From Candidatus Lokiarchaeum ossiferum (lineage in GTDB: Archaea; Asgardarchaeota; Lokiarchaeia; Sigyniarchaeales; Promethearchaeaceae), in NCBI GenBank assembly GCA_025839675.1, contig CP104013.1, positions 3,570,001 to 3,602,000 on the forward strand: a DNA stretch of 32,000 nucleotides. The letters are read 5' to 3'. Each line of letters begins with the position of its first letter. The first letter of the stretch is position 1. The position numbers and the translations under genes were made by a program. Positions 1-21,169 of this stretch are shown here, piece by piece. The notes beneath the pieces are model-generated. The model was not told the DNA's origin. It did no database searches and worked only from the letters and a program-made list of their open reading frames with translations.

Positions 1-1410
1 CTTTCTAACAATAATTACTACTCAGATTTAGTTTGCATGGATGATGATTGGTTTTACTTTGGGCCTATCTTAAGTCAAGAAACTCTTAGTGTGGAATTAC
101 GCTACGATACAGTCAATAATCTTGTCATCGAATTATTTGATGGCACTGGGGCATATCATGGATTTCAAGTAGATGATCAAACTTGGGGAAAACTGCTCAC
201 TTGGACTGCAGGAGGATACTTCTCTACCGCGTATTTATTGATCAGTGGAGACTTTAATACACCTTACTCCCTTGATTTGAGAGTTAGCACTACTATTAGT
301 GATGATTGGGCGGAAGAAAACGATGATATTTCATCGGCAAAAGATCTCTCAATCAATCGTCATAATGGTCTCATTCAAAACGATATGGATTGGTATAAAA
401 TATGGTTAGAGCCAAATGATCTGCTCGATATTATATTAGAATATGATAACGCCCTCCCTGGTTTATGGATGGATTTAGATTTATATGAATGGAGTTCAAC
501 AGCAGAATCTTTGCTGGTCTCGGGAACAAATGATAATGGGAAAAATATATTATCTTATACAAATGAGAATCTTGCAAAATATGTCTATATTCGAGTAAAT
601 GGTCCAAATAATGGAGATTGGTATGATTTAGATCTTACTTTGAATCCAAGTACTTCACCTGAAGAACCTTCTCTGGATTGGGTTGCTTATACATCTGGGG
701 ATTTTGCTGAATGGGATGCTACCGTTGAAATTTTTAATGAAGGTGGAAATTCAACTCTATTTGAAGGTTCCCTCCGGGGTGATATTACTGATGTTCAATT
801 AGGTGAACACTCTGTGATAGTGAGTTCTAATATGCAATGGTCCAATATTCCTACGGAGTATTTACAAGGATGGATCACTGGGGCTTATAACTTTGATATT
901 GAAGGTGATGGATTTGCTTATCCCGCATATTTTGGATTCGCATCCGTTTTTGTTGGCGATGGGTTCCATTATAGCGATACCCAAAAAATTTTCACTAACA
1001 TCTTTGACACTAGTTATGATATTCTGGATGACGGGCGGACCTTAGAAGTGGAATATAATCCAAGTGAGGGACCTTACTATAAGATGCGAGTAACTTATAC
1101 GGAAGACGGTTTCTTGAAGGAAATATCTATCGAAGGGGATTTTGTTGATGCTGTGGGAAATATTTTTGCCTATGGAAAAATTCACTTACTTTTAAGCAGT
1201 TCCTCAGTTGTTGAAGAAATAAAAACCGACGATACAATGACGAACTCTACAGATGATGGGAATGGAACGGGTGCGGATAGCAATCCATTTAGTGGATTTG
1301 ATCTTAGCAGTATCCCAGGTTTTCCAGCTGAAATCATTGGAGGCGTTCTTGGTCTTACCATCATTGCAATGATTGTGGCAGTAAAAAAGAAATCGAAAAA
1401 AGTGTTTTAA
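1..1410 (+). CDS. Cell-surface protein, 5'-truncated by the window edge, with PPC-like (pre-peptidase C-terminal type) beta-sandwich repeats and a PGF-CTERM-like anchor
   Basis: Frame 1 is open from nt 1, with no stop before the ATG at 37, so the true N-terminus probably lies upstream. There are two copies of the PPC-type pattern D-x-D-W-[FY] followed by LDLxLY-like strands (CMDDDWFYFG...; NDMDWYKIWLEPNDLLDIILEYD...MDLDLYEW). The C-terminus has a T/S/D/N/G-rich linker followed by IPGFPAEIIGGVLGLTIIAMIVAVKKKSKKVF: PGF at nt 1315-1323, a TM helix and a Lys cluster. Confidence 0.7.
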   Translation, partial: LSNNNYYSDLVCMDDDWFYFGPILSQETLSVELRYDTVNNLVIELFDGTGAYHGFQVDDQTWGKLLTWTAGGYFSTAYLLISGDFNTPYSLDLRVSTTISDDWAEENDDISSAKDLSINRHNGLIQNDMDWYKIWLEPNDLLDIILEYDNALPGLWMDLDLYEWSSTAESLLVSGTNDNGKNILSYTNENLAKYVYIRVNGPNNGDWYDLDLTLNPSTSPEEPSLDWVAYTSGDFAEWDATVEIFNEGGNSTLFEGSLRGDITDVQLGEHSVIVSSNMQWSNIPTEYLQGWITGAYNFDIEGDGFAYPAYFGFASVFVGDGFHYSDTQKIFTNIFDTSYDILDDGRTLEVEYNPSEGPYYKMRVTYTEDGFLKEISIEGDFVDAVGNIFAYGKIHLLLSSSSVVEEIKTDDTMTNSTDDGNGTGADSNPFSGFDLSSIPGFPAEIIGGVLGLTIIAMIVAVKKKSKKVF

Positions 1411-4400: not shown

Positions 4401-4533
4401 TGAATTTAATTCCCCGTTGCAAATCCCTTTTTTGTTTAAATTTCTTCAGCATTTCTCCCCGACTCCAAAGCTCTTCTTTGGTACTACTTAATTTCTGAGG
4501 CTTTAATTTTTTTCTTCTTTCTAATTTTGACAA
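1456..4533 (-). CDS. Giant coiled-coil protein with a C-terminal PPP-family (PP1/calcineurin-like) phosphatase fold carrying degenerate catalytic motifs, and a poly-acidic tail
   Basis: The ORF is 1025 aa and uninterrupted. The annotated start is TTG at 4533, with no in-frame ATG upstream; the first internal ATG is codon 28, so the start is uncertain. The middle third is E/K/R heptad-like low complexity. The C-terminal part aligns by eye with PP1: KLYYVGDSTF vs ICGDIHG, ILFLGNFIGNN vs LFLGDYVDRG, AYPAEVIMCRGEEEE vs KYPENFFLLRGNHE, LPIAHVV...ASHGGIP vs LPIAAIV...CCHGGLS, and KGYSFNETIFSAFMKANEL vs [21 protein letters not shown]. The tail is PEYEYEDEEEGEAEEEYEEEEESEGGENESEEGIEYEEEEEE. Confidence 0.8.
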   Translation of the reverse strand: MSKLERRKKLKPQKLSSTKEELWSRGEMLKKFKQKRDLQRGIKFKKRLEKELIRAFQDFTKGIKEDLITLNQSPQLLNAITLAEAYRQVCDKIGEDRDQYQGLFKFINVVRQNDREIEQIIRSMKKRFDYSDPDKFRVEGKRSAEYVKGILQTLRSIQDGFIQEQAEIDLSIKQREEERSNIQNQEASNNQNGMKNKKDIQLKVADYEKFGEKAPIQLKAREYIRDKTHPEEIPENIEAIRLFRKKITVDQQKKIQKPLSVKEEVQILKQTINEFDNQIQAFEKLGYYNHVKQSGKQWLLTLETLGKELSSETIDYNIRNALRGELRKNFKFIDEWLARVDVKYEIKRNINPNEPEVKQKNIEFITNQYHPTRDSYIKAQEDRRILKILASKDKGFEKELQKQETQQEIKKKQLEREIRAKEITEEKARRAREKELEKEKKRKAKEQERKLKEEELKKQQKLEKKQKEEQEALRLEKEEKTRLEKEKEKLRLQQIEKERAEKARIDDKEEKIRLERIKKEKEEAKRLKEIQDEEERTLKELQEKEEKERQAALESHKQEYQEKMQAIKNDKELTKSERTQKVLDLANWHSEEEVRILTAGTGADVPSTDEELEDLEEIRRNEELQAELDAKASKEKPRMAALKSNEIDQIWEFYFLHRYNHPTPDEFYGGDNAKQYIQQMLHQIQDIYDQYDSSKPLIETLPGSSKLYYVGDSTFDDNDKLLSRFFQPKIFESQANETPLRILFLGNFIGNNSMDLHNLLYIMCFNLAYPAEVIMCRGEEEELSRMEKNGFAQNVLDHFDDEILEEFKEFFVKLPIAHVVKSTYQNIIASHGGIPANINNPETPVLLSEIKHSPHISAKKMDSYALQFILNQPNARLKKNPIKKIAKKKGYSFNETIFSAFMKANELITEEVNGMMVSSNDFSKEGHTLLWENQSISICTTSEKDDKVAKAKILEITFPADPEYPEYEYEDEEEGEAEEEYEEEEESEGGENESEEGIEYEEEEEEVDPETLVQINVLDINNLQT
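2800..3360 (-). repeat. Low-complexity E/K/R-rich coiled-coil-coding tract; the + strand is almost pure pyrimidine
   Basis: The + strand reads as runs of ttc/ttt/ctt/tcc, for example ttctttttcctctttttcttgtaattctttt. It translates on the - strand to KELEKEKKRKAKEQERKLKEEELKKQQKLEKKQKEEQEALRLEKEEK... Boundaries are approximate. Confidence 0.8.
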
Positions 4534-4789: not shown

Positions 4790-7291
4790 ATGAAAGTTGT
4801 AGAAGAAAATAAGGAAATCCATTTATCCATTAAGGATGTGATATTCGCCAGTAGTGATAGGCGGTTCTATACTTCTTCCATCCCTCTTCGAATTCGTGCT
4901 TCTAAAGGTACCGAAGTCCATGTCGCCTTTCAAGATAAACGAAGTCAATCTGAAAAAAAATTCCAAAAAGAAGCCGCTGTAAAAATCAAACTTGAGGTAA
5001 TGGATTGGAAATTCATAATTTCTGGGCGAGCAGATGTTATTTTTGAAAAACAAGGGAAATTAATCATCGAAGAAATCAAATCGGTGACGAATTTGGAAAA
5101 GTTCGATTTCTCCTCCCGAATTGCGGAAGAATATCGGCAACAACTACTTATGTATGGTCACTATTACAAGCAATTAGGAAGAGATATTGTGTGTCGATTA
5201 GTGCTGGTGGATATTTATTCAGAAGATACCGAGATTATTGAAATTGAACCCCAAGATTTAACCAATTATATCCAGCAACAATGCCAAGTTATACTTACCT
5301 CATGGAAACAAAACCTAAAACAACGAGATTTATTAAAAAAACGTGCTAAAACAATTCAATTTCCTTTTTCAGACCATCGTCCCAATCAGAAAGAAATTAT
5401 TGAAAAAACATCTGAAATTTTAAGCAATCAAGGTCGTCTCATGCTTTTAGCACCTTCGGGACTTGGTAAAACCATCGGAACACTTTATCCTGCCTTGAAA
5501 TATTCACTACGTCACAATAAGCGTCTTTTCATTGTGACATCAAAAACGACCCAACAAAACATCTATCGAGAAACACTCCAGATCTTCGCTAAAAAGAAAG
5601 GTCAATTTTCTTCCATTATTCTTACAGCCAAGGAAAAGATGTGTGTAAATGACGCTTTCATTTGTGAAAAATCTTTTTGTCCCTTCATAGAAAATTATGA
5701 AAACGCACCACTTGATGAGATCACTTCAGAAGTATCAAAAAAACAAGTTGTTGATGCACGCATTATTCGAAAGATTGCCAAGAAACATACTGTATGCCCA
5801 TTTGAACTTTCCTTGGATTATTCGTTAGAATGTGATGTCATAGTTGGTGACTATAACTACGTGTTTCATCCCTTTATTAAATTGAAACGTTATTTCGATC
5901 AACCCTATGATGATATGGTTCTCATTGTAGATGAAGCTCATAATTTACCTTCACGGGCTATGACTTATTATTCGCCTGAAATTACTCTAAAAAGTATTGC
6001 TGACACAATCGAGTCCTTGCGTGCGTTAAATCTTCCCAAGAAAGTGGAACGTAAAGGTCTAGATCTTTATCAGAAAGTCAACAAATATCTCCTTGCCCTA
6101 ATTAAAGAATACCCTGATATTCCAAACCGTAAAATTGTGCTCGCTAAATTTGATAAGAAATTCTTTCGTACGGTAGTGAAGGATAGTGATCGATTTGTAA
6201 TGTGGTATGTTCAAGCTTATATTGATCGAATGGGATATCAACCAGGAGGTAAAGATAGAAATCTTGAGTTTACTATGAATTTACGTAATTTTTATTTAAT
6301 CTTGAAGGAAAGCGATTTACCTGAATATAGCGAGTTGTTATATCTTAAAGAAGGGAAAATGAAAATCCTATGCAAATCAGCAGCCCATAAATTAGAATAC
6401 CAACTTCAAGGGTTTAATTCGGTTATTATGCAATCAGCCACTCTCTTTCCAATGGAATATTTTCAAAAAATGCTTGGGTTTCCTGAATCTGCAATTCGGC
6501 TTCAATTTAATTCCCCTTATGCTCAGCAAAACCGGTTATATCTATTAATGCCGAACATTTCAACCAAATATGAATATCGTCGGGATTCTTATGAACCAAT
6601 TGCTGCATTGATCTGTGATTCAGTAGCCTTAAAATATGGGAATTATCTTGCTTTTTTCCCCTCCTTTAAATATTTAAAAGCCGTGGAACAAGAAATTGAG
6701 AGAAAATCTCTCTCAGTTGAGTTGTTAGTGCAAGATAGAAATATGAGTGAACGAAAAAGGAGAGAATATCTGAAAAAATTGCAATCCCCAGATAAAAAAT
6801 ATCTCCTCTTAGGAGTTCATGGTGGCATTTTTAGTGAAGGTGTAGATTTCACAGGTGATATGGCTATTGGAGCATTCATCATCGGTCCTGGATTACCAGC
6901 TTATTCATTGGAGCAAGAAATGATGAAAAATTACTTTGATTTCAAATGGCAAAAAGGATTTGAGTATGCCTACCGCAATCCAGGGATCACAAAGGTAATT
7001 CAATCTGCAGGTCGGGTTTTCCGAACTTTTACAGATAGAGGATTTGTTATTTTAATTGGACAGCGATTCATAACTCCTTTTTATAAAGATATTCTCCCCC
7101 AAGATTGGTTGATTGAGCGACCTGATGATATTATTGGAAGAATTTCTTCTTTTTGGAATGATAAATCTCCAAAAATTATTACAAAGTCAAATGAAACGGA
7201 AGAAAAATATGAGAAACCGAACAAAAAAAAGAGCTCTAAAAAGAAATATCCAAAAACAGTTGACCTCTTTGATTTGATGGAAAAGCTTTAA
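4790..7291 (+). CDS. PD-(D/E)XK (RecB/Cas4-like) nuclease domain fused to an XPD/Rad3/DinG-family SF2 Fe-S DNA helicase
   Basis: The N-terminal ~175 aa carry GRADVIF...LIIEEIKS (D at nt 5033, ExK at 5069-5080) followed by QQLLMY (a QxxxY motif). The helicase motifs are: Walker A LLAPSGLGKT (nt 5450-), a four-Cys cluster MCVNDAFICEKSFCPF...VCPFE, VIVGDYNYVF, DEAH in VDEAHNL (nt 5930-), QSATL, GGIFSEGVDF and QSAGRVFR. The C-terminal tail is Lys-rich. Confidence 0.9.
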   Translation: MKVVEENKEIHLSIKDVIFASSDRRFYTSSIPLRIRASKGTEVHVAFQDKRSQSEKKFQKEAAVKIKLEVMDWKFIISGRADVIFEKQGKLIIEEIKSVTNLEKFDFSSRIAEEYRQQLLMYGHYYKQLGRDIVCRLVLVDIYSEDTEIIEIEPQDLTNYIQQQCQVILTSWKQNLKQRDLLKKRAKTIQFPFSDHRPNQKEIIEKTSEILSNQGRLMLLAPSGLGKTIGTLYPALKYSLRHNKRLFIVTSKTTQQNIYRETLQIFAKKKGQFSSIILTAKEKMCVNDAFICEKSFCPFIENYENAPLDEITSEVSKKQVVDARIIRKIAKKHTVCPFELSLDYSLECDVIVGDYNYVFHPFIKLKRYFDQPYDDMVLIVDEAHNLPSRAMTYYSPEITLKSIADTIESLRALNLPKKVERKGLDLYQKVNKYLLALIKEYPDIPNRKIVLAKFDKKFFRTVVKDSDRFVMWYVQAYIDRMGYQPGGKDRNLEFTMNLRNFYLILKESDLPEYSELLYLKEGKMKILCKSAAHKLEYQLQGFNSVIMQSATLFPMEYFQKMLGFPESAIRLQFNSPYAQQNRLYLLMPNISTKYEYRRDSYEPIAALICDSVALKYGNYLAFFPSFKYLKAVEQEIERKSLSVELLVQDRNMSERKRREYLKKLQSPDKKYLLLGVHGGIFSEGVDFTGDMAIGAFIIGPGLPAYSLEQEMMKNYFDFKWQKGFEYAYRNPGITKVIQSAGRVFRTFTDRGFVILIGQRFITPFYKDILPQDWLIERPDDIIGRISSFWNDKSPKIITKSNETEEKYEKPNKKKSSKKKYPKTVDLFDLMEKL

Positions 7292-8070
7292 TTGGAATCT
7301 AAGAAATTCAGTACAATTTGATTAAATTCTTCAGGTTTTTCTATGGGTACCGCATGGTGAGCATTTTGGATTATCTTTAATTCTCCTAGTGGAATTTTCT
7401 CTGCAATAGCTTGTTTTATTGATATTGACGTATAATCTTGGTCTGCTGTAAGTATTAATGCAGGACATTGCATTTGTTGGAGTGAATTTTCCACACTCCA
7501 GTTTTTCAACGCATCCATGCTTTGCAAGTATGCGCCTTTTTCGTTTTCAGCCCAGCGGTCCGCTACAATAGATTGAAGATCTTGTTGACTTTCTAAGGGA
7601 AAAAGATTTCTGCCAATTATTTCTCCAATTTTTTTCATCCCAAGTATTTTTACAACAAAAGTCCGCTTCCAATAAGCAAATCTGGTTTTGATTGAGTTTA
7701 TTTTTAGAGACGCTGCCATATTTACAGCAATTATTTTTGAGACTTGATTTGGGTAATCAATAGCAAGCTGATATGTAATTGCTGCACCCATCGAGATTCC
7801 AAGCACTGAAAAATTATCAATTTGCTCTGAATTTAATAATTGGATGATATCCTCGGCAAATCCTTTAATTGAATATCTCGCCTTTGGTTTACCACTTTGA
7901 CCATGACCTCGTAGATCGATTGCAATGGTCCGATATTTCTGAGCAAATACTGGAATTTGATATTCCCAATCCCTTAGGCTGGACCCTAATCCATGGATTA
8001 AGACTAAATTTGGACCCTGTCCTTTAATCTCAAAATTTATCATAATCCCATTAATCCTTTTTTGGGGCAT
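7288..8070 (-). CDS. Alpha/beta-fold hydrolase
   Basis: The protein has the HG oxyanion motif LVLIHGLGSS, the nucleophile elbow GISMGA (GxSxG) and a C-terminal His region NAHHAVPIEKPEEF. Its length of 260 aa is typical of the family. Confidence 0.88.
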   Translation of the reverse strand: MPQKRINGIMINFEIKGQGPNLVLIHGLGSSLRDWEYQIPVFAQKYRTIAIDLRGHGQSGKPKARYSIKGFAEDIIQLLNSEQIDNFSVLGISMGAAITYQLAIDYPNQVSKIIAVNMAASLKINSIKTRFAYWKRTFVVKILGMKKIGEIIGRNLFPLESQQDLQSIVADRWAENEKGAYLQSMDALKNWSVENSLQQMQCPALILTADQDYTSISIKQAIAEKIPLGELKIIQNAHHAVPIEKPEEFNQIVLNFLDSN

Positions 8071-8144: not shown

Positions 8145-8765
8145 ATGGGAGAAAAAATCACGCTTCCAAATTTTAAAGCTGAAGAAAATGTGCCAAAGAA
8201 GCGTCAAGTGAGTATTCTTTCAAAATACCAGAGCTATCCTAGAATCATAATTAAATCGATTATTACTCTAATAAAAAAGATAGATCAGAAAACTGGTGAA
8301 GACACCAAATATAAATCAAATTACTTTTTCAACACACCTGATGGACCCATTACTGTCAATGTAATGATAGAGTCTTCTGGGGGAGAAAAAATTGGGTTGA
8401 TGATCCCCTTTATGAAAGATTTAGGAAATATTTCTAAAGCTCAAGCGATATTCCACTTACTTCAGATGCAGACCGGTTTAGATCTGGCTAAATTAGATAA
8501 AGCAATTCTAATATATCCTATGGGATTGATAGGACCTCATGGTAAAATTGGACAAATACTCGAAAATTACTCTGATAATCTTATCATTGTGAATCTTTCT
8601 GATGAAAAATCTCAAAAAATATTAGATTTGGCAACAAATCCATTTACCGTTGAGGAATGGCTGGAAACCGATTTCTTTATTTATATCCTAAATCAATGTT
8701 TTCCAGGTCAATCTATTGAGTTTCTTAAAAAATATTTATTGAATATGCCGGATCATCCATTTTAA
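8145..8765 (+). CDS. Hypothetical protein (206 aa), no recognisable motif
   Basis: This is a clean ORF in the same orientation as the downstream cluster, with a codon and amino-acid composition like its neighbours. No family signature was recognised. Confidence 0.55.
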   Translation: MGEKITLPNFKAEENVPKKRQVSILSKYQSYPRIIIKSIITLIKKIDQKTGEDTKYKSNYFFNTPDGPITVNVMIESSGGEKIGLMIPFMKDLGNISKAQAIFHLLQMQTGLDLAKLDKAILIYPMGLIGPHGKIGQILENYSDNLIIVNLSDEKSQKILDLATNPFTVEEWLETDFFIYILNQCFPGQSIEFLKKYLLNMPDHPF

Positions 8766-10043: not shown

Positions 10044-11090
10044 ATGGTGAATTCAATGGTTCAGAAGAAAATAGTATGTATCGGAGATGTTGTTCTGGAT
10101 ATTCTTCCCTCAATCCTTCCAATAGCAAAAAATGAAATCCTATTGGATGGAGAAACTTTTGTAGATTCTGTTTCTTACCAAAAAGGCGGGTGTGCTGGTA
10201 ATTTTTCATGTGTGTTAAAGTCAATTATGCCGATGGCAGAAGTTTCTTTAGTTTCACGTGTTGGGAGAATACCATATAGTGATTTTTTAATTAAAGAAAT
10301 CGAAAAATTTGGTGTTATCCCCGTTTTTCAAATCGATAATGTTGAAAGAACTCAAGTCACTATGGCTCTCTCTTATCAAGATGGACAAAGGCATTTTCTA
10401 ACCTTTCTAGGCGGATTAAAGAATTTTGTTATTGAAGATATTCCCGAAGATATCTTCAAAGATGTACATCATCTTGCTTTTCGGGGAATCTGGTTTGCAG
10501 AAAAACTATTATTAAAATCTGAAGAATTCATTAAAAAAGCGATTGCATTGGGTGTGGATGTTTCCATAGATTTAGGCTTTGATCCCTATTGGAATTTGCA
10601 GAAGCAAAATGAAAAATTTCAAGTAAATGTAGGTAAAAGACGTTCGGCTGTAATGAAGACATTAAAATATGTGAAATATCTCTTTGGGAACGAAGAAGAA
10701 ATCACCCAATTAATACATTCTGAGTCTTTAGATGCTGCTATACATGAAATCCTAGATATGGGAGTGAAAAACATCATCATCCACCGTGGAGATAAAGGGT
10801 GTCGGATAATTCAATCTTCAAAATTGAAGCCAATGAAAGACTTTTCATCCATAAATATCCCTGCATTACAAGTAGAAGTAAAAAATCCTGTTGGTTCCGG
10901 AGATACTTTTGATAGCATATTTTTAGCAGAAATATTGGAAGGAAAACCAATAATTCCAGCTGCTGCATTAGCTACAGCAGGTGCTGCCTATTCATTGATG
11001 AATTCTGCTGGAAATATACTCTCTATGGATGTGATTGTTGAGTTTAGTTCTCGATTTCCCGAATTGACCCCATTTTTAAATTACTCTTAA
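10044..11090 (+). CDS. PfkB/ribokinase-family carbohydrate kinase
   Basis: The protein has the N-terminal GG..N motif (QKGGCAGNFSCVL) and the C-terminal anion-hole/catalytic motif NPVGSGDTFDSIF. The gene starts 6 nt after the SIS gene stop, suggesting co-transcription. Confidence 0.88.
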   Translation: MVNSMVQKKIVCIGDVVLDILPSILPIAKNEILLDGETFVDSVSYQKGGCAGNFSCVLKSIMPMAEVSLVSRVGRIPYSDFLIKEIEKFGVIPVFQIDNVERTQVTMALSYQDGQRHFLTFLGGLKNFVIEDIPEDIFKDVHHLAFRGIWFAEKLLLKSEEFIKKAIALGVDVSIDLGFDPYWNLQKQNEKFQVNVGKRRSAVMKTLKYVKYLFGNEEEITQLIHSESLDAAIHEILDMGVKNIIIHRGDKGCRIIQSSKLKPMKDFSSINIPALQVEVKNPVGSGDTFDSIFLAEILEGKPIIPAAALATAGAAYSLMNSAGNILSMDVIVEFSSRFPELTPFLNYS

Positions 11091-11101
11091 ACTTGAATAG
11101 A

Positions 11102-11111
11102 TTTTTTTTTT
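11102..11111 (+). terminator. T10 oligo-T tract after the PfkB gene
   Basis: A run of ten T begins 11 nt after the TAA at 11088-11090. It is followed by a 150+ nt non-coding gap before the next gene. Confidence 0.5.
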
Positions 11112-11267
11112 GAAATCAGTGTTCTTTGACAAATTACAGTTTTGGAAGTTTTTCGTGATATTAGGATAAATTTCTTAGTTAAATCTTGCCCACTTATGAT
11201 TCCTTCATGTTGATCGGTTTTTGAAATCTCTAAAGTTTTTTAAATTGAAAGAAGAAAGTGTTTTACA

Positions 11268-12437
11268 TTGATTGTTATGATAGGTGAAAACAAAATTCTT
11301 GATTGCCATATCCATTACTCTTTACCTATTAAACCACAAGATTTGATTGAGACGATGGAACTAGCCAATACCGATTTTGCAAATTTGGTTATCGTTCCGG
11401 ATAAAAATCGCATCTCATCTGTTCCAGATGCTTTGATGCTAAAATATCAATATCCCACAAAGTTCTTCGTATTTGGATGCCTGGATGTTTCACAATATTT
11501 CATGCACAATAAGTCTGTTGGGAAACAATTTGTCAAATATGTTAAAAGAATACAACTTTGCGGATGTGATGGGATCAAGATGATTGAAGGCAAACCTGAT
11601 TTGAGGCGCACGGTGCCAATTCCTGATTTTGATAAACGCGTTTGGGAACCTTTTTGGACTTTTGCTGAAGAAATTGGTCTACCAATCCTATGGCATGTTA
11701 ATGATCCAGAAGAATTTTGGGATGAATCCAAAATACCTTCCTGGGCTAAAAATCAAGGATGGTTGTATGGGGAAGATACAATCAATAACGAAGTACAATA
11801 TACGCAAGTCTTAAACGTGTTGAAGAAACACCCTAAGTTAAAAATAATTTTTGCTCATTTCTTCTTTATGTCCGCGCAGCTTGAACGATTATCTGAGATT
11901 TTCGATAAGTTTTCAAATATTTATGTTGATTTAACTCCTGGAATCGAAATGTATATCAATTTCTCCAAAAACCAAGAATCTGCAGTTCAATTCTTTAAAA
12001 AATATCAAAATCGGATTCTTTATGGAACAGATATTGGCGCGAGGTGTGTGATATCAAATGACTTTGAGTTAAATAATAAAGAAAGTACACATCGATCTAC
12101 GCTTGTTCAATCATTTTTATCAAAGCAAGGGCAATTCACTGTGAAATCAGATGGAGATTTTTTAATTGGAATTGAAGATTTTCAATTACGTGCTCTCAAT
12201 TTACCTCCACATATCACCAAGAAAATATTCTATGATAATTTTTCACGGATTGTAGGTAAAAAACCTCGTACAGTCAATCCAAAGATGGTAATTAAAGAAT
12301 GCAAAAGAATCAAAACTATGATTAGAGTCATGTCACTCATAAAAAGAATTAAGATTGCTGATTACTCATATGCTAACCAAGTAATCGGTTTTTTTAAAAA
12401 AAATAATTCTAATAAAAAAAAATGGAGATTCCAATGA
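11268..12437 (+). CDS. Metal-dependent TIM-barrel amidohydrolase-superfamily protein (Amidohydro_2-like)
   Basis: It has the N-terminal HxH motif (LDCHIHY), an internal His (WHVND, FAHFFF) and the late Asp motif YGTDIG. The track start at 11268 is TTG; ATG at 11277 is an equally plausible start. Confidence 0.75.
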   Translation: MIVMIGENKILDCHIHYSLPIKPQDLIETMELANTDFANLVIVPDKNRISSVPDALMLKYQYPTKFFVFGCLDVSQYFMHNKSVGKQFVKYVKRIQLCGCDGIKMIEGKPDLRRTVPIPDFDKRVWEPFWTFAEEIGLPILWHVNDPEEFWDESKIPSWAKNQGWLYGEDTINNEVQYTQVLNVLKKHPKLKIIFAHFFFMSAQLERLSEIFDKFSNIYVDLTPGIEMYINFSKNQESAVQFFKKYQNRILYGTDIGARCVISNDFELNNKESTHRSTLVQSFLSKQGQFTVKSDGDFLIGIEDFQLRALNLPPHITKKIFYDNFSRIVGKKPRTVNPKMVIKECKRIKTMIRVMSLIKRIKIADYSYANQVIGFFKKNNSNKKKWRFQ

Positions 12438-13846
12438 AAAAGATAACTAAGAAAAAGCTTCCCTTGTATGCACTGGCAGGTTTCGGACCCAGTTTGTTAG
12501 GAACCGTACTCGGGGTTTATTTAATTAATGCCCTAATTGTTGAAGGTTTTGGGGTCGATGTAGAAAACTGGACGTATGCAAATAAAACATTAGTGGTCAC
12601 AGCCGTGTTCAGTGCCCTTGTTTTATTTGCTAAAATTATTGATGGGGTTGCTGATATTCCTTTAGCTGCTTGGACTGATTCTTTAAAATCGAAATGGGGA
12701 AAAAGACGCCCTGCTATAGTGATAGGTTTTATTCCCATGGTTCTTACCTACACGTTGTTTTGTTTTCCGCTTTCAAATGACGAACATAGTATGCTAAATA
12801 CCATTTACTTTGGGATTTTGCTTGCATTATATTTCACCGCATACACTTTAACCTTCGTGACTTATTATGGTACCTATTCAGAAGTCACTGCCTCATCGGA
12901 TGATCGGATATCATTATCAAATTGGAAAGCCTTTTTTGATACTGTTTCATATAGTGTTGGATATGCACTAATTCCTGTTTTTATTGGTTTTGATATCAAT
13001 ATTCGCATCATAGGTTTAGCTGGAATACCATTAATGTTTACAATGCTAATCGCATTATTCATGTTAAAGGAAAAATCAACGTTACCTGAAGATGTTGTCA
13101 AAACAAAACAAGATCTTGAGCATACTGAAACTTCTGCTCTTGTTGAAGAAGAAGTTGGGTTTATGGAAAGTGTCAGACTCACAACCAAGAATAAAGGGTT
13201 TATGATTTGGTTGTTTGTAATGGCTGCGTTCTTTTTTGGTCTACAATTATTTTTGGCAGGTCAAAATGTAATGGCATCAGGTGCCATGGGATTGAATGGC
13301 TGGCAAATCGCTGTCCTCAATACAGCTGCTTTTGCACCTGTTCCCTTGATGATTATTGTTTATCGGAAAGTTATGAAGAAGAAAGGGTTTCGGTTTGCTT
13401 TTCAGTCGGCGCTCCTTTCTTTTGCTTTAGCTATGCTTACTTTCTCCATTGCATATGTTGAATGGATTCCCAGTTTGACAGCCAGGTTAATAATTGGAAT
13501 TGCGGGAGGAACAATTGGTAGTTATGGGATTTGTGCATTTTTCTCTGCTCCCTATTTTATTCCTTCACAGATGGCAGCAGAAGAATTAGCTGCAACTGGA
13601 AGGAGTCATCCATCGATGTATTTTGCAATGCAAGGCTTATTTACAGCTGTCGTGGCGGCAATCAGTACGAGCGTCGTTTGGCTGAACATTCGAGGGTTGA
13701 TCGTTGATGGTGAAGAATTCTTTGGGGTTCATCTCATGCCTTTCGTTGTTGCAGGTGCTTGTGTTGTCGCAATAATTATTGCCTTTTTCTTACCTAAATC
13801 TTTCAGTCAACTTGGACGCATGGAAAAAGTGCAGCTAAATGAATAG
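12422..13846 (+). CDS. GPH/MFS_2-family glycoside-pentoside-hexuronide:cation symporter-like transporter
   Basis: About 12 hydrophobic segments are present, along with the GPH loop signature DGVADIPLAAWTDSLKSKWGKRRPAIVIG (compare MelB D..DP..G...D...S.WGK.RP). It overlaps the amidohydrolase gene by 16 nt; an alternative ATG lies at 12434. Confidence 0.85.
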   Translation: MEIPMKKITKKKLPLYALAGFGPSLLGTVLGVYLINALIVEGFGVDVENWTYANKTLVVTAVFSALVLFAKIIDGVADIPLAAWTDSLKSKWGKRRPAIVIGFIPMVLTYTLFCFPLSNDEHSMLNTIYFGILLALYFTAYTLTFVTYYGTYSEVTASSDDRISLSNWKAFFDTVSYSVGYALIPVFIGFDINIRIIGLAGIPLMFTMLIALFMLKEKSTLPEDVVKTKQDLEHTETSALVEEEVGFMESVRLTTKNKGFMIWLFVMAAFFFGLQLFLAGQNVMASGAMGLNGWQIAVLNTAAFAPVPLMIIVYRKVMKKKGFRFAFQSALLSFALAMLTFSIAYVEWIPSLTARLIIGIAGGTIGSYGICAFFSAPYFIPSQMAAEELAATGRSHPSMYFAMQGLFTAVVAAISTSVVWLNIRGLIVDGEEFFGVHLMPFVVAGACVVAIIIAFFLPKSFSQLGRMEKVQLNE

Positions 13847-14042
13847 TGCATAGCACGACAAAATACCCATAACCTTCGGATTTGCTTTCTTTTCTTTTTT
13901 TCATCTTTTTTCATTTGTGTTAATACAAATGCTTAACAATTTATACCCCATCGGGAATTTTATTACTTATATGCAAAGGATTTAATTTTATCCATCTATT
14001 TCTTTATTAAATCGCAAGATGCGTAATTTGGAAGCAATTTAA

Positions 14043-15764
14043 ATGACACAATCTGATCTAATACGAACAACCACTTCGATTTGTCCCGAATGTATGCAAC
14101 CTATCACCGCGAAAATAGTCGTGGATTCTTCTAAAGGAGAAAATGGATGGGTTATGATGATAAAAGAGTGCGCTCAGCATGGAGAATTTCAAGATATTAT
14201 TTCAAAAGATCCAGCACTCTACAAATGGAAAAACACATACGCTGATGATTTAGATTGTAAATTTTCAACTAAACCCATTAATGGAAATCAATTTTCCGTA
14301 CAAAAAGGCTGTCCCTATGATTGTGGACTATGTACAGAACACCAATCTCAAGCCAATCTTATGATAATCGATGTTACTAATCGTTGTAATTTGAGCTGTC
14401 CAATCTGTTTTGCAAATTCAAATGCTTTAGGACGTATCGTTGAATATTCTTATGAAGAAGTTGTTCGGATTATGGAGCATTTTATTGCTCAGAAGCCTTA
14501 TCCTGCCGCGATCGCTCAATTTTCTGGAGGAGAGCCTACATTGCATCCTCGAATTATTGATATTTTAAAAAAAGCCAAAGATCTCGGTTTCCAACACCGA
14601 ATGATTAATACTAACGCTATAAAAATGGCACGATCCGTTGATTTTTGTCGCGAACTCAAAGAAGCGGAATGTGGTGCGATATATTTTTCCTTTGATGCTG
14701 CCAGTGCTAATTCTCCCGAAGTATATAAGAAAATCCGAGGGATGGATCTCACAAATATTAAACGAAAAGCGGTTGAAAATTGTCGCGAAGTTGGCTTAGA
14801 TGGAATTATGTTAGTGGTGACAGTAGCAAAGGAGTGCAATGATGGTGAAATTGGTGCAATCATGGAATTTGCGAAAGAAAATAACGATGTTGTTGCTGGT
14901 GTCATTTTTCAACCTGTTTCCCTTTGTGGACGTATTACTCTTGAAGATTTAATGAATCTTCGTTATACAAGCAGTGATTTGGCTAAAGAACTGTCTAAAG
15001 TCACCAATGGTGCCTTAGATAAATTCTATCCGTTAGCAATGTCGAGTAAATTAACTCAATTGTTAATTTGGTTCTCTGATCTGCCTGGTTGGTCTATTTC
15101 TGCTCATGAAGATTGTGGGTGGGCTACTTTTCTACCGATCCAAAAAGGTGAATTTGTGCATATAAGTGAATATGTTGAAGTGGAAGGACTTATTGAATGG
15201 GCCAATGAATGTTGGGATATGGTGTCAAAACGTCAAATTCCTCAACCCTCTTCAGGATTAAGAGGTTTAAGACCTTTTGCAGATAAACTCGGTCTTGGGC
15301 GTGTTTTTGATGCGTTAAGCGAATTCACTGATACTATGACCGATATTGCCTATCGCAATGCCATGAAAGCTTATTTTGTAGCTGGCACTATGAAACATCT
15401 GAAGAATTTTGAAGCGAAAAAATTGTTTGAAGATCCTATTTACAAATATATGTTGAATTTCATTAATGATGTGCGCATTGAGAAATCCAAACAACTTCTT
15501 GAACACGGATTGCTTATGGTAGGTTGTATGCATTTTCAAGATGCCTACGATTTGGATGTGGAACGAGTGAAACGATGTGTTGTGCATTACGGTACTCTGG
15601 ATCCCGAAGATCCGCAGAAAGTCTTGCAGATCCCATTCTGTACATTCAACACAATCCATCGAGAAGGCATTGAGAAGGCATGGGCAGCGAAGTATTCTAA
15701 GCCCATTGATAAATCTGCTGACGAGCATGCGAAAGAAGTACAAGCGCTCGAGAAATCAATTTAG
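14043..15764 (+). CDS. Radical SAM enzyme with an N-terminal rubredoxin-like Cys/His motif and auxiliary Cys clusters; tetraether-lipid synthase (Tes / GDGT-MAS)-like
   Basis: It has the CxxxCxxC motif in VTNRCNLSCPICFA (nt ~14385-14410) and a GGEPTL SAM-binding motif. The N-terminal region is TTSICPECMQ...KECAQHGEF. A pre-core cluster motif GCPYDCGLCTEH is present, and the C-terminal part reads VGCMHFQDAYDLDVERVKRCVVHY...IPFCTFN. From memory, this layout matches archaeal Tes/GDGT-MAS-type proteins. The radical SAM call is secure; the subfamily call is less so. Confidence 0.8.
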   Translation: MTQSDLIRTTTSICPECMQPITAKIVVDSSKGENGWVMMIKECAQHGEFQDIISKDPALYKWKNTYADDLDCKFSTKPINGNQFSVQKGCPYDCGLCTEHQSQANLMIIDVTNRCNLSCPICFANSNALGRIVEYSYEEVVRIMEHFIAQKPYPAAIAQFSGGEPTLHPRIIDILKKAKDLGFQHRMINTNAIKMARSVDFCRELKEAECGAIYFSFDAASANSPEVYKKIRGMDLTNIKRKAVENCREVGLDGIMLVVTVAKECNDGEIGAIMEFAKENNDVVAGVIFQPVSLCGRITLEDLMNLRYTSSDLAKELSKVTNGALDKFYPLAMSSKLTQLLIWFSDLPGWSISAHEDCGWATFLPIQKGEFVHISEYVEVEGLIEWANECWDMVSKRQIPQPSSGLRGLRPFADKLGLGRVFDALSEFTDTMTDIAYRNAMKAYFVAGTMKHLKNFEAKKLFEDPIYKYMLNFINDVRIEKSKQLLEHGLLMVGCMHFQDAYDLDVERVKRCVVHYGTLDPEDPQKVLQIPFCTFNTIHREGIEKAWAAKYSKPIDKSADEHAKEVQALEKSI

Positions 15765-15813
15765 TTACTTACTCCTTTCCCTTTTTTTAAAAAAAATTTG
15801 TTGGTTAAATTTT

Positions 15814-16311
15814 ATGTCCAAACCTATAGAATTGAATAATTTGTATGATTTTTATGTTATTCGGTTGAATGGATTGCCCATTTTTGCCGGGTGTTCAGGA
15901 ACCGATTATTGTCAAGGTCATGTTGCCCAACATCAATTACATGCTGGTTTTTTTTCAGCATTATATGCTTTTGCAAATGAAGCATTTCAAGATGTTAGAT
16001 TAGAGACAATTTATTTTGATAAGATTCAAATGAACCTGTTGATATCGGAATCTGATAATATAATGATTATTTTCGTTCATCATCGTTCCAAATCCTTGCA
16101 GAAAATTCGTGAATTAATGAATCAAACTTGGGAAATCTTCAAACAAGACTACATCCCGAAGTTAAAAGAAAATCAGTTCCAAAAGGATCTCTATAAAGCT
16201 TTTCTTGAAGATTTGAAAAAACTCAAGGTCATTTTACCTGATAAAGATCCCTTTGACATTCGAGAAATGTTATTAGAAGGCTTAAAAAACCGTAAGATTC
16301 CTGCTCAATAA
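15814..16311 (+). CDS. Small cytosolic protein (166 aa) with a longin/roadblock-like alpha-beta pattern
   Basis: The track ORF 15577-16311 overlaps the radical SAM gene upstream. The first ATG beyond that gene's stop is 15814 (MSKPIELNNLYDFYVIRLNG...). The residue pattern reads beta-hairpin (FYVIRLNGLPIFAG), helix (HAGFFSALYAFANEAF), three strands (LETIYFDKIQMNLLISESDNIMIIFVHH) and helices (LQKIRELMNQTWEIFKQDY; LYKAFLEDLKKLK). It is paralogous to the C-terminus of the TPR protein at 20774-21166. Confidence 0.65.
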   Translation: MSKPIELNNLYDFYVIRLNGLPIFAGCSGTDYCQGHVAQHQLHAGFFSALYAFANEAFQDVRLETIYFDKIQMNLLISESDNIMIIFVHHRSKSLQKIRELMNQTWEIFKQDYIPKLKENQFQKDLYKAFLEDLKKLKVILPDKDPFDIREMLLEGLKNRKIPAQ

Positions 16312-16396
16312 GAATATGCACTTATTTTTTTCTTCGATTTTTAACTGAAGTTGAGATTCCTATAGATTTTAATGATGTGAATTAATACTAAAACCT

Positions 16397-16774
16397 ATGG
16401 GGTTTAATATTGGTCGCGCGCTGATTGTTGGATTTCTGTATTATATCTTCTCAATTATTATCATATTCCCATTAACACCAATTTTTCCCGATTTTATAAT
16501 ACTCGTTTGGTGGATGACTGAGATGTTCTTTGTCTTTCTACTAAGCAACTATATATATTTTCGAAAAAGTAGTAATACTAAGGGCATAGATGGCATATAC
16601 TTGGGCCTATTTTTAATCGTTCTGACCTTTATATTTGATATTCTATTTTATATATTTGTGATGGGAGAAGGATGGCTGTATCTTTTACATTGGGCTCATG
16701 GAATTCGATACATAATCTTAATTATAGTTCCGTTTTTAACCGCACTTCTTAATAACCAAAGCTATTATTATTAA
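16397..16774 (+). CDS. Small integral membrane protein (125 aa, about 4 TM segments)
   Basis: Four long hydrophobic stretches are rich in F/I/L/Y. There is no signal-peptide-like cleavage motif and no family signature. Confidence 0.55.
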   Translation: MGFNIGRALIVGFLYYIFSIIIIFPLTPIFPDFIILVWWMTEMFFVFLLSNYIYFRKSSNTKGIDGIYLGLFLIVLTFIFDILFYIFVMGEGWLYLLHWAHGIRYIILIIVPFLTALLNNQSYYY

Positions 16775-16857: not shown

Positions 16858-17988
16858 TTAAATCTTTATAGATTTAATAATAAAACTCCTGAAGGGTTCT
16901 AATATTTGGGAAAGGGGTAAATCATCAAAAATATCCACCCTTCCCTTCAAATCTAATTCTAAAATTTTGACAGTTTCCTCATAAAAGCTCAATTTACGAA
17001 TAATCTCCTTGATATTGGTAGGCAATCCTCGCATCACTAAATCTAAAGGATCTTCAACCTGATAATCTGCGAATTCTTGAAAAAGCTGCAAGAGAAAAAG
17101 ATCGAAGGTTATTCGATGAAGATCTGCACTGCTGTAATAATGATCTTTGAATTCATCCTTGATTATTTCTATTGCATAAGCAAGGTCTTTGATAGATTTG
17201 TCTGCTTGCTCTCTTACTTTGTCTTCATCTTTAAGATGGCGATAACACATAGTTTTAATCAAGTTGTATTCGGATAACATATGCAACAAGCGTGCATTTA
17301 CATTATTCTTTAAATTACGAAATGATTCGCTATATTCGGGGGTATCCTCTAATTCTTTTTCCAGATTTCTAAAGAATAACGCTACTTCACGCAAGTGATC
17401 GATAGCAGGTTGATATTTTTTTTTTTGGATGAAATCGTGCAGTTCTTTTATATGACCTTGATAATCAAAAATTGTGGTATCAAATTTTTGAATCGCATCA
17501 AGGATTAGTCTCTCTGCTCGTTCGATTCTCCCAATCTTTTCAAAACATTCTCCCGCTCGAAGCAAAAACATTCCACTCGCTTGTCGGTATTCTTCTGGGT
17601 CCACCTCTGAAAATAATTCCGCTACTTCAATAAAAAGGTTGCCAGCGCTTAAAAAGTCCGAATTTTTGTAGTGGAGATCTGCTAAGGCTTGTTTTAGCTT
17701 CGCCAACTCTTCGGGGATATCTAAATATTCAATTTCTGAAATGGTATTCCGAATTTGTTCCATGATGAGTAAAATCTGAGATTCGCTAGTGACAAAAGAA
17801 ATTAATTTGTTAAACACTTCAGAAATTCTAAGATATCGGCCAGTATTTAAGAAGATCTCTAAAGCTTTTACATAAAGGTGAATAGAGCCTCGAATATTGC
17901 CCTCTTTACCTTGAATTTCCCCTTTAGCCATTAAATCTTGGGCTCGAATTAGTTCCGCTTGATCATCTTCATCAAAGGAATCGTACAT
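16858..17988 (-). CDS. All-helical repeat (TPR-like) protein of unknown function
   Basis: This is a 376-aa ORF with recurrent helix-pair patterns containing small residues at TPR-like positions (GSIHLYVKALEIFLNTGRY; AGNLFIEVAELFSEVDPEEY; AGECFEKIGRIERAERL). It is divergent from the proteasome alpha gene. Confidence 0.6.
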   Translation of the reverse strand: MYDSFDEDDQAELIRAQDLMAKGEIQGKEGNIRGSIHLYVKALEIFLNTGRYLRISEVFNKLISFVTSESQILLIMEQIRNTISEIEYLDIPEELAKLKQALADLHYKNSDFLSAGNLFIEVAELFSEVDPEEYRQASGMFLLRAGECFEKIGRIERAERLILDAIQKFDTTIFDYQGHIKELHDFIQKKKYQPAIDHLREVALFFRNLEKELEDTPEYSESFRNLKNNVNARLLHMLSEYNLIKTMCYRHLKDEDKVREQADKSIKDLAYAIEIIKDEFKDHYYSSADLHRITFDLFLLQLFQEFADYQVEDPLDLVMRGLPTNIKEIIRKLSFYEETVKILELDLKGRVDIFDDLPLSQILEPFRSFIIKSIKI

Positions 17989-19063: not shown

Positions 19064-21169
19064 ATGCTCTTTGACCGATTAAATCAAGCTAATTACAAAT
19101 TAAGAGATAGTAGTGGAAAAAAGCACTCTGATATGAAATTATCTACAGAATCTCTTTTAAAACAATTTTATCAAGGTAAATTTGAAGAGATACTTATTTG
19201 GATTAAATCGATCAAGATGAAGGATATATCAATTAATGAAAAGATAGATTTATTTCTTCTTCAAGCCCAATGCCTTAACAAAACTGGTCAATATGAAGAT
19301 AACTTAAATTTTCCCTCCTCATTTAAAAAGCAATTTGGAGAAATTTCAGTACCAAATGAGATCGAAGTTGAAATTTTAGTAATTCAAGCCGAAGCTCTTC
19401 GCTTTTCTGGAGACATTGAACAAAGTTTGAACATAATATCTCAATGTTTAAAAATCATTGAAAATAATTCTTTTAACGAAGATGCGGAACAATATTATCT
19501 CGGATGCCTTTTCAATCTTCGAGGAGTTCTTTTCTATCGCCAAGGAAAATATCAGTTGGGGCATGATAGCCTTACAAATTCGTATGAAATCAGGAAAAAG
19601 AGAGAATTTGCTCCAGATATCGCTGCCACTTTAAATAACTTGGGAAATATTTATGCTTTGAAAGGTCAATATTCGAAAGCGATGGATTGTTACAAAAAAA
19701 GTTTAAAGATTAGCATAGAATGGGGAAATAGAAGGGATATTGCTCAGTCTCTCAATAATATTGGAACAATTTATCATGAAAAAGGGGAATTAGATAATTC
19801 TTTAAGTTATTATTTTCAAAGTCTGAAATTTAGTGAACAAATTGGAAATAAAGCAGATTTAGCCATTGATTATCAAAATATTGGTGAAATTTATGAACTT
19901 AAAGGAAAACTTATTCAAGCAATATCTTGTTATAATAAATCTCTAAATGCCAGTAAAGAAAGTAAGTTCAAATTTGGCATAGCAATGTCCCTTCAAAATA
20001 TTGGATACATCCATTATATGAAAGGAAATTCCATTGAAGCCAGTAAATATTACCAAGAAAGCTTATTACTGCATGAAAAAATGGGAAATAGTATTGAAAC
20101 AGGTCTAGTTTTGTTCAGACTTGTTAGAATTTTTCTTGAAATGGATCACATTGAAAAAGCAAGAAAATTCTTTCAGAAACTCGAAAAATTGAAGGAATAT
20201 GAAGAAAATAATTTCATTGTTTTATTTCATAATGTAGCTCATGCCTTACTATTGAAACAAAGTAGTAGGTTCAGGGATCTAGCAAGTGCCATGAATATTT
20301 TTGAAGATGTTATTAGAAATGATATAATTTCTCACGAGATAACTGTGAATTGTCTTTTAGGTCTATGTGAAATATTATTAGTGGAATTAAAAGCCACGGT
20401 TAATGAAAAAATCATTGAGGAAATTGAAGATTACATCCAGCTATTGCTGAAAATTGCAAAACAACAGAATTCTTCACTTCTTTATGCAAAAACGTATTGG
20501 TTGCAAGCCCAAATCTCATTAGTTAAACTTGATCTAGATGTAGCACGGCAAAAACTCACCAAAGCACAAAAAATTGCCCAGCAATATGGATTAAGTAATC
20601 TTGCCCAAAAAATCTCCAATGATCACGATCGATTGATAGAGCAACTAGATCTTTGGAACGATTATAAAACAGAACAAGTTTCGATTGGTGAACGAATAAA
20701 ATTTGCCTCTTTAGATAAAAAATTGGCCGAATTAGGCAAAGATCGAAAAGATTTAGAAGAAAAAATTGCCTTGGAAGCTCCAATTTTCTTTATTATTATG
20801 CGAAAAGCAGGAACTTCTGTATTTTCCATGAGTTTTTCCACCCAGTGGGATCTGAAGGGGGGCTTATTTGGATCATTTTTAAGCGCATTTAACACGTTTA
20901 GTAAAGAAGTTTTTGAGGAAAAGCTGGATCGAGCCAAATTTGGCGATTTTCTGATTCTTATGAAATCTTTAGAATCCTTTGTGGTATGCTATGTTATAAA
21001 AAACAATTCCTATGCAGCCCAACAGAAATTTCAAAATGTGTTAGAATTAATTCGAACCAATACAGATATTTGGGCAGTACTAAAGAAGGCGGAATTGTCA
21101 GGGCGCAATCTTTCAAAATCGGATATCCCTGAATTAGTGGCTCTTATTAATGAGAATATGATTGAATGA
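19064..21169 (+). CDS. TPR-repeat protein (LGN/Pins-type tandem TPRs) with a coiled-coil linker and a C-terminal longin/roadblock-like domain
   Basis: It contains at least seven consecutive 40-aa units of the type ATLNNLGNIYALKGQYSKAMDCYKKSLKISIEWGNRRDIAQSLNNIGTIYHEKGELDNSLSYYFQSLKF. A coiled-coil segment follows (KLAELGKDRKDLEEKIALE). The C-terminal ~130 aa (nt 20774-21166) read PIFFIIMRKAGTSVFSMSF...GGLFGSFLSAFNTFSKEVFEEKLDRAKFGDFLILMKSLESFVVCYVIKN. Confidence 0.85.
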   Translation: MLFDRLNQANYKLRDSSGKKHSDMKLSTESLLKQFYQGKFEEILIWIKSIKMKDISINEKIDLFLLQAQCLNKTGQYEDNLNFPSSFKKQFGEISVPNEIEVEILVIQAEALRFSGDIEQSLNIISQCLKIIENNSFNEDAEQYYLGCLFNLRGVLFYRQGKYQLGHDSLTNSYEIRKKREFAPDIAATLNNLGNIYALKGQYSKAMDCYKKSLKISIEWGNRRDIAQSLNNIGTIYHEKGELDNSLSYYFQSLKFSEQIGNKADLAIDYQNIGEIYELKGKLIQAISCYNKSLNASKESKFKFGIAMSLQNIGYIHYMKGNSIEASKYYQESLLLHEKMGNSIETGLVLFRLVRIFLEMDHIEKARKFFQKLEKLKEYEENNFIVLFHNVAHALLLKQSSRFRDLASAMNIFEDVIRNDIISHEITVNCLLGLCEILLVELKATVNEKIIEEIEDYIQLLLKIAKQQNSSLLYAKTYWLQAQISLVKLDLDVARQKLTKAQKIAQQYGLSNLAQKISNDHDRLIEQLDLWNDYKTEQVSIGERIKFASLDKKLAELGKDRKDLEEKIALEAPIFFIIMRKAGTSVFSMSFSTQWDLKGGLFGSFLSAFNTFSKEVFEEKLDRAKFGDFLILMKSLESFVVCYVIKNNSYAAQQKFQNVLELIRTNTDIWAVLKKAELSGRNLSKSDIPELVALINENMIE

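Follow-up and report, generated by a model that had tools for sequence, protein, structure and literature searches.

A stand-alone Cys/His longin protein encoded close to a TPR-tethered longin paralog in Candidatus Lokiarchaeum ossiferum

Dimers of longin and roadblock domains are the platforms that underlie the eukaryotic regulators of Rab, Rag and Arf GTPases, and Asgard archaea carry dozens of such domains. In Mon1-Ccz1 and in TRAPP, two longins form a heterodimer via their central strands and antiparallel α1 helices, and the joint α1 surface binds the Rab; the TRAPP subunits Bet5 and Trs23, which present such a surface, are small, essentially single-domain longins (PMC5216073). On the archaeal side, Loki is predicted to have 41 longin domains, and dimerisation has been predicted or shown for roadblock and longin proteins of Asgard archaea (PMC10933270). 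The Roadblock/LC7 superfamily accounts for 130 asCOGs (Asgard clusters of orthologous genes; bioRxiv 10.1101/2020.10.19.343400), and longin domains are enriched in L. ossiferum (PMC9834061). Hardly any interaction partners of the Asgard longin and roadblock domains have been named, in part because the GTPase genes of these archaea do not, in general, share operons with the genes for roadblock, longin or TRAPPC3 proteins (PMC10933270). Here we describe a 165-amino-acid protein of Candidatus Lokiarchaeum ossiferum encoded at positions 15,814 to 16,311 of a 32,000-nucleotide stretch of DNA, hereafter referred to as the window (GenBank assembly GCA_025839675.1, contig CP104013.1, positions 3,570,001 to 3,602,000 of the forward strand). 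We compare it to the domain at the C-terminal end of a 701-amino-acid tetratricopeptide repeat (TPR) protein encoded further downstream in the same window.

Fold of the free protein and its paralogy to the TPR-tethered domain

The free protein belongs to a family of stand-alone proteins of about 150-190 amino acids each, which comprised no fewer than 59 clusters (50% identity) in an exhaustive HMMER search (membership threshold E ≤ 1e-3). The named members all stem from Asgard archaea (Promethearchaeota (Loki), Heimdallarchaeota AB_125 and LC_3, Heimdallarchaeaceae, Kariarchaeota) and are annotated as 'hypothetical protein', as is the Ca. L. ossiferum entry with which the window protein shares 99% identity. 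An alignment of 49 members underlies the family profile and the column counts reported below, and the genomic context was evaluated at 22 loci with flanks of 4-10 kb; a search with a 14-sequence alignment yielded 5 genome loci and 3 metagenome loci.

The AlphaFold2 (AF2) model of the free protein, built on the 49-sequence alignment, has a mean predicted local distance difference test score (pLDDT) of 92 and a predicted TM-score (pTM) of 0.87. In this model, DSSP assigns strands to residues 12-17, 22-27, 65-67, 71-78 and 83-90, and helices to residues 31-35, 37-57, 95-112, 124-136 and 150-158; the resulting succession β1-β2-α1-β3-β4-β5-α2-α3, followed by a short extra helix, is the order found in longins. 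Residues 1-11 form a coil of low pLDDT, so that the first structural element is β1 at residue 12. The roadblock arrangement is excluded since no N-terminal helix precedes β1; Roadblock/LC7 proteins such as MglB and LAMTOR2/3 resemble the free protein in the core of five strands and in the central helix (1veu_A, TMt 0.65), but they follow the order α-β-β-α-β-β-β with a helix at the N-terminus, whereas the small longin possesses two or three helices after β5. PF03259 (Roadblock/LC7) was not matched by any family member among the top 25 Pfam families.

A Foldseek search of the PDB with the free protein returned solely structures of the longin/roadblock superfamily at E values around 1e-4. When the free and partner models are considered together, the matched longins comprise Bet5/Trs23, Mon1, Ccz1, SR-α SRX, AP2 σ/μ-N, ζ/δ-COP and Fuzzy (probability 1.00, E 1e-4 to 1e-3, TM-scores 0.45-0.67). 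The free protein is covered most fully, and superimposed best over its entire length, by the TRAPP longins Bet5/Trs23 (TRAPPC1/TRAPPC4), with TMq/TMt values of 0.63-0.64 over 162-164 columns (7e2c_E, 7e8t_E; also 3cue_C, 2j3t_C); it also matches Mon1, SR-α SRX and COPI ζ/δ, as well as MP1/LAMTOR3 and MglB over the core. At the profile level, PF19036 (Fuz_longin_1), which represents the first longin domain of FUZ, MON1 and HPS1, is matched by 17 of the 49 members (best 2.4e-5), PF19031 (Intu_longin_1) by two, and PF13774 by one. A profile search of the PDB was led by SRX (0.033), followed by the VAMP7 longin and, lower down, Mon1; with the single sequence of the free protein, nothing relevant was found in the PDB, and this protein has no NCBIfam match.

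The 701-residue protein is recognized by Pfam as a TPR protein (TPR_12, 3.9e-35; several other TPR families; TPR_MalT over residues 231-509), and it is the region following these repeats that resembles the free protein. BLASTP of the free protein against the entire TPR protein gave no significant match, while a Smith-Waterman alignment with TPR residues 561-701 scored 48 against 29.3 ± 4.9 for 1000 shuffled sequences, four of which reached 48. The profile of the 49 members, used in hmmsearch, detects residues 577-664 of the TPR protein with 23.7 bits (i-Evalue 2.5e-7); among the 152 six-frame open reading frames (ORFs) in the window, the runner-up has an E value of 0.12. Reciprocally, a profile of the partner domain matches every small family member (E 1e-8 to 2e-3), and hhalign relates the small-family alignment to that of the partner with a probability of 98.0% (E 2e-13, 117 columns), or of 97.5% (E 5.6e-12) when a seven-sequence partner alignment is used. 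Judged by these comparisons, the free protein and the C-terminus of the TPR protein are paralogous, and their divergence, at an identity of about 15-17%, is old. The partner domain itself is rare: a homology search with TPR residues 551-701 in a word-indexed protein database gave nothing, and a four-sequence profile added three fragments from such a database of 5.8 billion proteins.

AF2 models TPR residues 566-701, on an alignment consisting mostly of small-family sequences, with a pLDDT of 90.4 and the order β-β-α-β-β-β-α-α-α (in segment numbering, strands 7-15, 20-25, 58-61, 64-70 and 74-81, and helices 34-52, 85-100, 102-114 and 124-135). The Foldseek matches of this model are headed by AP2 σ and further include Fuzzy, Ccz1/Mon1, LAMTOR and TRAPP. 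A sequence-only reading of the window had paired the two segments by eye, had deduced the order β-β-α-β-β-β-α(-α), and had proposed a longin-type fold close to roadblock/LC7. The blocks that it paired are those recovered by the Smith-Waterman and profile alignments, the relationship missed by BLASTP is borne out by hmmsearch, reciprocal profiles and the significant profile-profile similarity, and both models show the longin order where a different fold would have spoken against the proposal; between the two folds that it named, topology favours the longin, in keeping with the matches to TRAPP, Mon1 and SRX. Of the longin fold and of the paralogy we are nearly certain.

Conservation pattern and putative metal site

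Conservation within the small family is highest from β1 to α1, where the means lie between 0.53 and 0.71, as opposed to 0.30-0.47 elsewhere. The family motif reads D12...S-G20-x-P22...C27-x5-C33-x2-(H36)-x3-H40-x-L-x2-G-F-x2-A-x3-F-x2-E; G20 is invariant (49/49), C27, C33, H40 and A49 are each present in 48 of the 49 sequences, D12 and P22 each in 46, F53 in 45, E56 in 44, and H36 in 30. At the position of H36, a divergent subgroup carries 'PD-H' instead. According to the DSSP assignments, D12 should be located opposite C27 across the β1-β2 hairpin, with H36 and H40 one helical turn apart where α1 begins, and the spacing of D12, C27, C33, H36 and H40 resembles that of a Cys2His2-type site. We infer from residue types, spacing and secondary structure that D12, C27, C33 and H40, mostly joined by H36, may form a Cys2-His(-Asp/His) metal site that caps the N-terminus of α1. 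The partner domains, including the TPR-tethered copy, possess neither the two cysteines nor the histidine; what they have in common with the small family is the α1 motif [GS]-F-[FLI]-[SA]-A-x3-F-[SA]-x-E.

This pattern bears on a reading in which D12, C27, C33 and H40 are the functional centre of the protein, which would then not be a GTPase platform but either a module that senses metal or redox state or an enzyme of the Cys-His-Asp type with a longin as its scaffold. These four residues, together with G20, are the most conserved positions of the family, and no member is linked to a GTPase gene. At locus L019, the longin gene lies amid metal-homeostasis genes (DUF411, YHS/TRASH, DUF302, P-type ATPase; 5301-6838 and 13629-15875), a context worth noting because of the putative metal site. 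However, it is a single case, one family member (P0058) lacks the whole Cys/His motif, and the remainder of α1 is equally conserved and is shared with the motif-less partner. To our knowledge, no enzymatic longin fold has been established. We regard this reading as improbable.

The conserved residues also allow a closer comparison with the described longin systems. Mon1/Fuzzy/HPS1 and Ccz1/Inturned/HPS4, the tri-longin guanine nucleotide exchange factors (GEFs) for Rab proteins, share the longin order with the Lokiarchaeum pair, in which two diverged longins are likewise encoded together. In addition to the PF19036 and PF19031 matches of the small family, Foldseek pairs Mon1 chains with the free protein, and Fuzzy as well as both the Ccz1 and the Mon1 chains of 5ldd with the partner. 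The S-G-x-P turn before β2 is a further point of likeness, as Mon1 has 'AGKP' at this position. Yet each subunit of the tri-longin RabGEFs contains three consecutive longins, whereas here one resides in the 165-residue protein and one is joined to TPRs in the partner; neither the α0 helix nor the SxDxR elbow loop of the tri-longin RabGEFs was identified in the Lokiarchaeum pair, and we know of no counterpart in Mon1 to the Cys/His insertion between β2 and α1. The TRAPP longins, despite their good superposition, are only about 10-12% identical to the free protein and do not have the Cys/His motif, and no Bet3/TRAPPC3-type subunit was found near the small longin gene. Longins of GTPase-activating proteins (GAPs), i.e., FLCN, NPRL2 and SMCR8/C9orf72, which have look-alikes in Asgard archaea, use a GP motif in the loop before β2 and an arginine finger (PMC12290439). 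The small family has a conserved Gly/Pro motif at the entry of β2, but it is G20-x-P22 rather than GP, and the Lokiarchaeum longin lacks a DENN module. No arginine column qualifies as a conserved finger (the highest, R99 on α2, reaches 24/49), and membership in the GAP longins was rejected on this ground. σ-adaptin and ζ-COP, finally, are stand-alone longins of about 140-170 amino acids that work together with α-solenoid proteins and with another longin, itself joined to a further domain; here the TM-scores are just 0.4-0.58 with a large root-mean-square deviation, and no sequence-level signal was found. The longin and roadblock proteins already catalogued in Asgard archaea agree with the pair in organism group, fold class and the expectation that they act as dimeric platforms (PMC10933270; bioRxiv 10.1101/2020.10.19.343400; PMC9834061).

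Gene linkage and a candidate heterodimer

Wherever the genomic context of a partner-domain gene is usable, a member of the small family is encoded no more than 5 kb away. In the window, 2.75 kb separate the free longin gene from the TPR-longin gene, and both are kept in a syntenic Lokiarchaeum relative (locus L007) whose small protein is 86% identical. At locus L004, the end of a convergently transcribed gene for a 667-residue TPR-longin protein is about 0.8 kb away from the small gene, and in the Heimdallarchaeota metagenome-assembled genome (MAG) S146_22 (locus L002), the partner longin is the N-terminal domain of a 244-residue protein whose gene is convergent and 42 nucleotides away. Three separate Asgard lineages hence have the free and partner genes at most 5 kb apart while the partner is fused to differing modules, a pattern to be expected if it is the contact between the two longins that is conserved. 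This recurrent adjacency lends support to the idea of a heterodimer, which the sequence-only reading had put forward.

We suggest that the free and the tethered domain heterodimerise in such a way that their edge strands would form one continuous sheet and their two α1 helices would pack antiparallel to each other; we consider the chances that they do so to be evenly balanced. The TPR array would anchor the resulting platform to other proteins. By analogy with Mon1-Ccz1, Trs23-Bet5, FLCN-FNIP and Ragulator, the α1 face, with the putative metal site at its N-terminal edge, would most likely dock and regulate, probably in a GEF-like manner, one of the numerous small GTPases whose genes lie in other parts of the Lokiarchaeal genome. 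GTPase regulation by the longin pair is a tentative proposal, and we lean somewhat against it. The heterodimeric platform tethered to a TPR scaffold is favoured because α1 is conserved, its stripe of small residues is common to both paralogs, and the genes are linked in three lineages; it is the best explanation that we can offer for these data, and we would give it about an even chance of being correct.

The same linkage can be viewed from the side of the small gene. There, a partner is present within the flanks in just three of about 12 independent lineages, so that either the two genes need not occur as a pair or the partner mostly has its gene at another site. A partner-type longin is absent from the 8-10 kb around the majority of family members, and the 59 clusters of the small family stand against a handful of partner sequences, although the latter were counted in a different, word-indexed database. 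Moreover, Asgard longin and roadblock homodimers have been predicted or solved (PMC10933270). The small longin might act alone, probably as a homodimer in the manner of MglB or of the one predicted for an MK-D1 longin, with the TPR-longin protein as an independent paralog whose proximity reflects local duplication history and not a complex. An identity of some 15-17% makes a recent local duplication unlikely, however, and the two genes are linked repeatedly, in three lineages that differ in partner architecture and in gene orientation; we therefore rate an independently acting homodimer as rather unlikely, albeit worth keeping in mind.

TPR proteins are a recurrent element next to the small gene: the window contains a 376-residue protein with TPR-like matches in addition to the TPR-longin protein, a 149-residue TPR protein adjoins the small gene at L004, and small TPR proteins are located directly upstream of it at L003 and L017. 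Such an arrangement could mean that the small longin docks into the TPR solenoid, and not onto the C-terminal longin, as σ-adaptin and ζ-COP do in the trunks of their large subunits. The partner model has AP2 σ chains as its top Foldseek matches, and L. ossiferum is reported to be enriched in adaptin-N repeat proteins (PMC9834061). On the other hand, these genomes abound in TPR proteins, the L002 partner is devoid of any TPR, and Foldseek does not separate the longin subfamilies here, so that an adaptor-like role appears quite improbable to us.

Several observations weigh against the heterodimeric platform or against individual parts of it, beyond the sparse occurrence of the partner. With regard to the fold, the Foldseek TM-scores are moderate (0.45-0.64), and the E values for roadblock structures are as good as those for longins; every Pfam longin match falls below the gathering score (three members reach 16.9-18.1 bits with PF19036, whose cut-off is 26.1 bits), and the free protein of the window has no longin Pfam match of its own. 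The partner model, given the alignment on which it was built, is a consistency check and not independent of the homology. Metal binding is proposed from residue identity and spacing, and the closest ortholog, the one with 86% identity, has R instead of H36. As to the client, neither Pfam searches of all large ORFs nor a scan for P-loop/NKxD motifs revealed a small GTPase in the window, as the sequence-only reading had stated, and none is present within 8-10 kb of a family member at any of the 22 loci.

A more far-reaching version of the platform would combine a Cys/His longin with a motif-less, solenoid-tethered longin into an archaeal two-subunit GTPase-regulating module that is gated by a metal or redox site at the edge of the α1 face to which the GTPase would bind. 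We attach little credence to it; such a module could be a prokaryotic relative of the heterodimeric longin RabGEFs Mon1-Ccz1, BLOC-3 and CPLANE, or of the longin-plus-solenoid halves of adaptors and coats.

Further features were noted at the loci that harbour these genes. The 244-residue protein of L002 (5281-6015, minus strand) has a Cys-rich C-terminal extension of about 110 amino acids with the motif CNLCQKKRRNQCFC; this extension has no sequence match in Pfam, NCBIfam or the PDB, and a V4R/TRAPPC3-like identity could not be shown for it. A gene for a PAS-HATPase kinase (6088-7188, minus strand) is situated directly upstream of the gene for this 244-residue protein on the same strand, and at L007 a hybrid PAS-HisKA-HATPase-REC gene (10683-12977, minus strand) is inserted upstream of the TPR-longin gene. 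These kinase-adjacent partner genes recall the fusions of longins with two-component proteins reported in Asgard archaea (bioRxiv 10.1101/2020.10.19.343400). Locus L012, which is otherwise syntenic with L004, encodes a 104-residue partner-type longin fragment without β1-β2 (7284-7598, plus strand) that follows a DUF362 gene instead of a TPR region and may be a truncated or rearranged copy. At L014 (30-4928, plus strand) and L015 (498-5462, plus strand), which are two related MAG contigs, the small gene is preceded immediately, on its own strand, by a gene for a protein of 1632-1654 amino acids without a Pfam match.

Gene surroundings and significance

The features of the locus are compiled in Table 1. 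The mechanically predicted ORF opens at a GTG codon at position 15577 and would overlap the end of the upstream gene; since the ATG at 15814 agrees to within about 10 residues with the N-termini of all 48 aligned homologues, this codon is supported as the start, and the extent from ATG to TAA that had been read from the window is correct. The T7A8 tract may have a double role, as oligo-T terminator of the preceding gene and as TATA-like element of the longin gene, and the T runs that follow the stop codon would act as an archaeal-type oligo-T terminator. Together, these two elements suggest that the longin gene is a separate transcription unit.

Table 1. Coordinates of the two longin genes, their domains and motifs, and adjacent sequence elements in the window
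Feature	Position	Strand	Basis
T7A8 tract	15782..15796	+	18-32 nt before ATG; read from sequence
Free-subunit gene, 165-aa stand-alone longin-domain protein	15814..16311	+	ATG start, TAA stop
Strand β1 and β1-β2 turn (D12, S-G20-x-P22)	15847..15879	+	Column counts
C27-x5-C33-x2-(H36)-x3-H40, β2-α1 connection and first turn of α1; putative metal site	15892..15933	+	Column counts
Helix α1 (residues 37-57), small-residue stripe G45-F46-x-S48-A49-xxx-F53-xx-E56	15922..15984	+	Conservation
T7 and T5 runs	16325..16342	+	Directly after stop codon; read from sequence
TPR-longin fusion gene, proposed tethered subunit, 701 aa	19064..21169	+	Pfam TPR; syntenic ortholog in L007
TPR solenoid region, ~residues 139-510	19478..20593	+	Pfam TPR matches over 139-509
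C-terminal longin domain of TPR protein, ~residues 572-701, paralog without Cys/His motif	20777..21166	+	hmmsearch, hhalign, AF2

The gene preceding that of the free longin (14043-15764, plus strand) ends 49 nucleotides upstream of it on the same strand and encodes a radical-SAM protein with an HMPTM-type N-terminal zinc ribbon. This protein scores 419.9 bits with the NCBIfam model NF045702 'tetraether lipid synthase Tes' (cut-off 450) and looks like a Tes-like homolog of the synthase for glycerol dialkyl glycerol tetraethers (GDGTs) in Lokiarchaeum. Its score with the tetraether lipid synthase model, and the retention of the adjacency in the 86%-identical relative, might be taken to indicate an accessory role of the small protein for this enzyme. 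No radical-SAM neighbour is found at the annotated family loci outside Lokiarchaeum, though, and the T7A8 tract between the two genes points to separate transcription units; as the adjacency is limited to Lokiarchaeum, the idea of a common operon was rejected, and an accessory role is in our view highly improbable.

Downstream of the free longin gene, an ORF at 16397-16774 (plus strand) would encode a hydrophobic protein of 125 amino acids without Pfam or NCBIfam match; it is either strain-specific or not a gene, since the syntenic L007 has merely a 163-nucleotide gap at this position. Between the two longin genes, the 376-residue protein mentioned above (16858-17988, minus strand) has weak TPR-like matches (TPR_12, 7.8e-4), is kept in L007, and might add another helical-repeat component to the longin neighbourhood. 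Elsewhere in the window, the ORFs 37-1410 (plus strand), 1456-4533 (minus strand) and 8145-8765 (plus strand), with 457, 1024 and 206 codons' worth of amino acids, respectively, have no Pfam match at E ≤ 1e-3.

Longins of Asgard archaea are already well catalogued, and the small family is one more in a large known class. In the searchable literature, which excludes the asCOG tables, we found no description of a Cys/His longin, of a TPR-longin fusion, or of archaeal relatives of the tri-longin proteins; within this scope, the invariant Cys/Cys/His insertion, the Mon1-like signature, the fusion of a longin to TPRs, and the recurrent pairing of the two genes are unreported so far. The locus provides a concrete candidate pair in the cultivated Ca. 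L. ossiferum, with a free Cys/Cys/His subunit and a subunit tethered to a TPR scaffold, and this pair is a starting point from which to reconstitute an Asgard longin complex biochemically. Should a heterodimer and a client GTPase be confirmed, the pair would bear on the origin of the heterodimeric longin GEFs.

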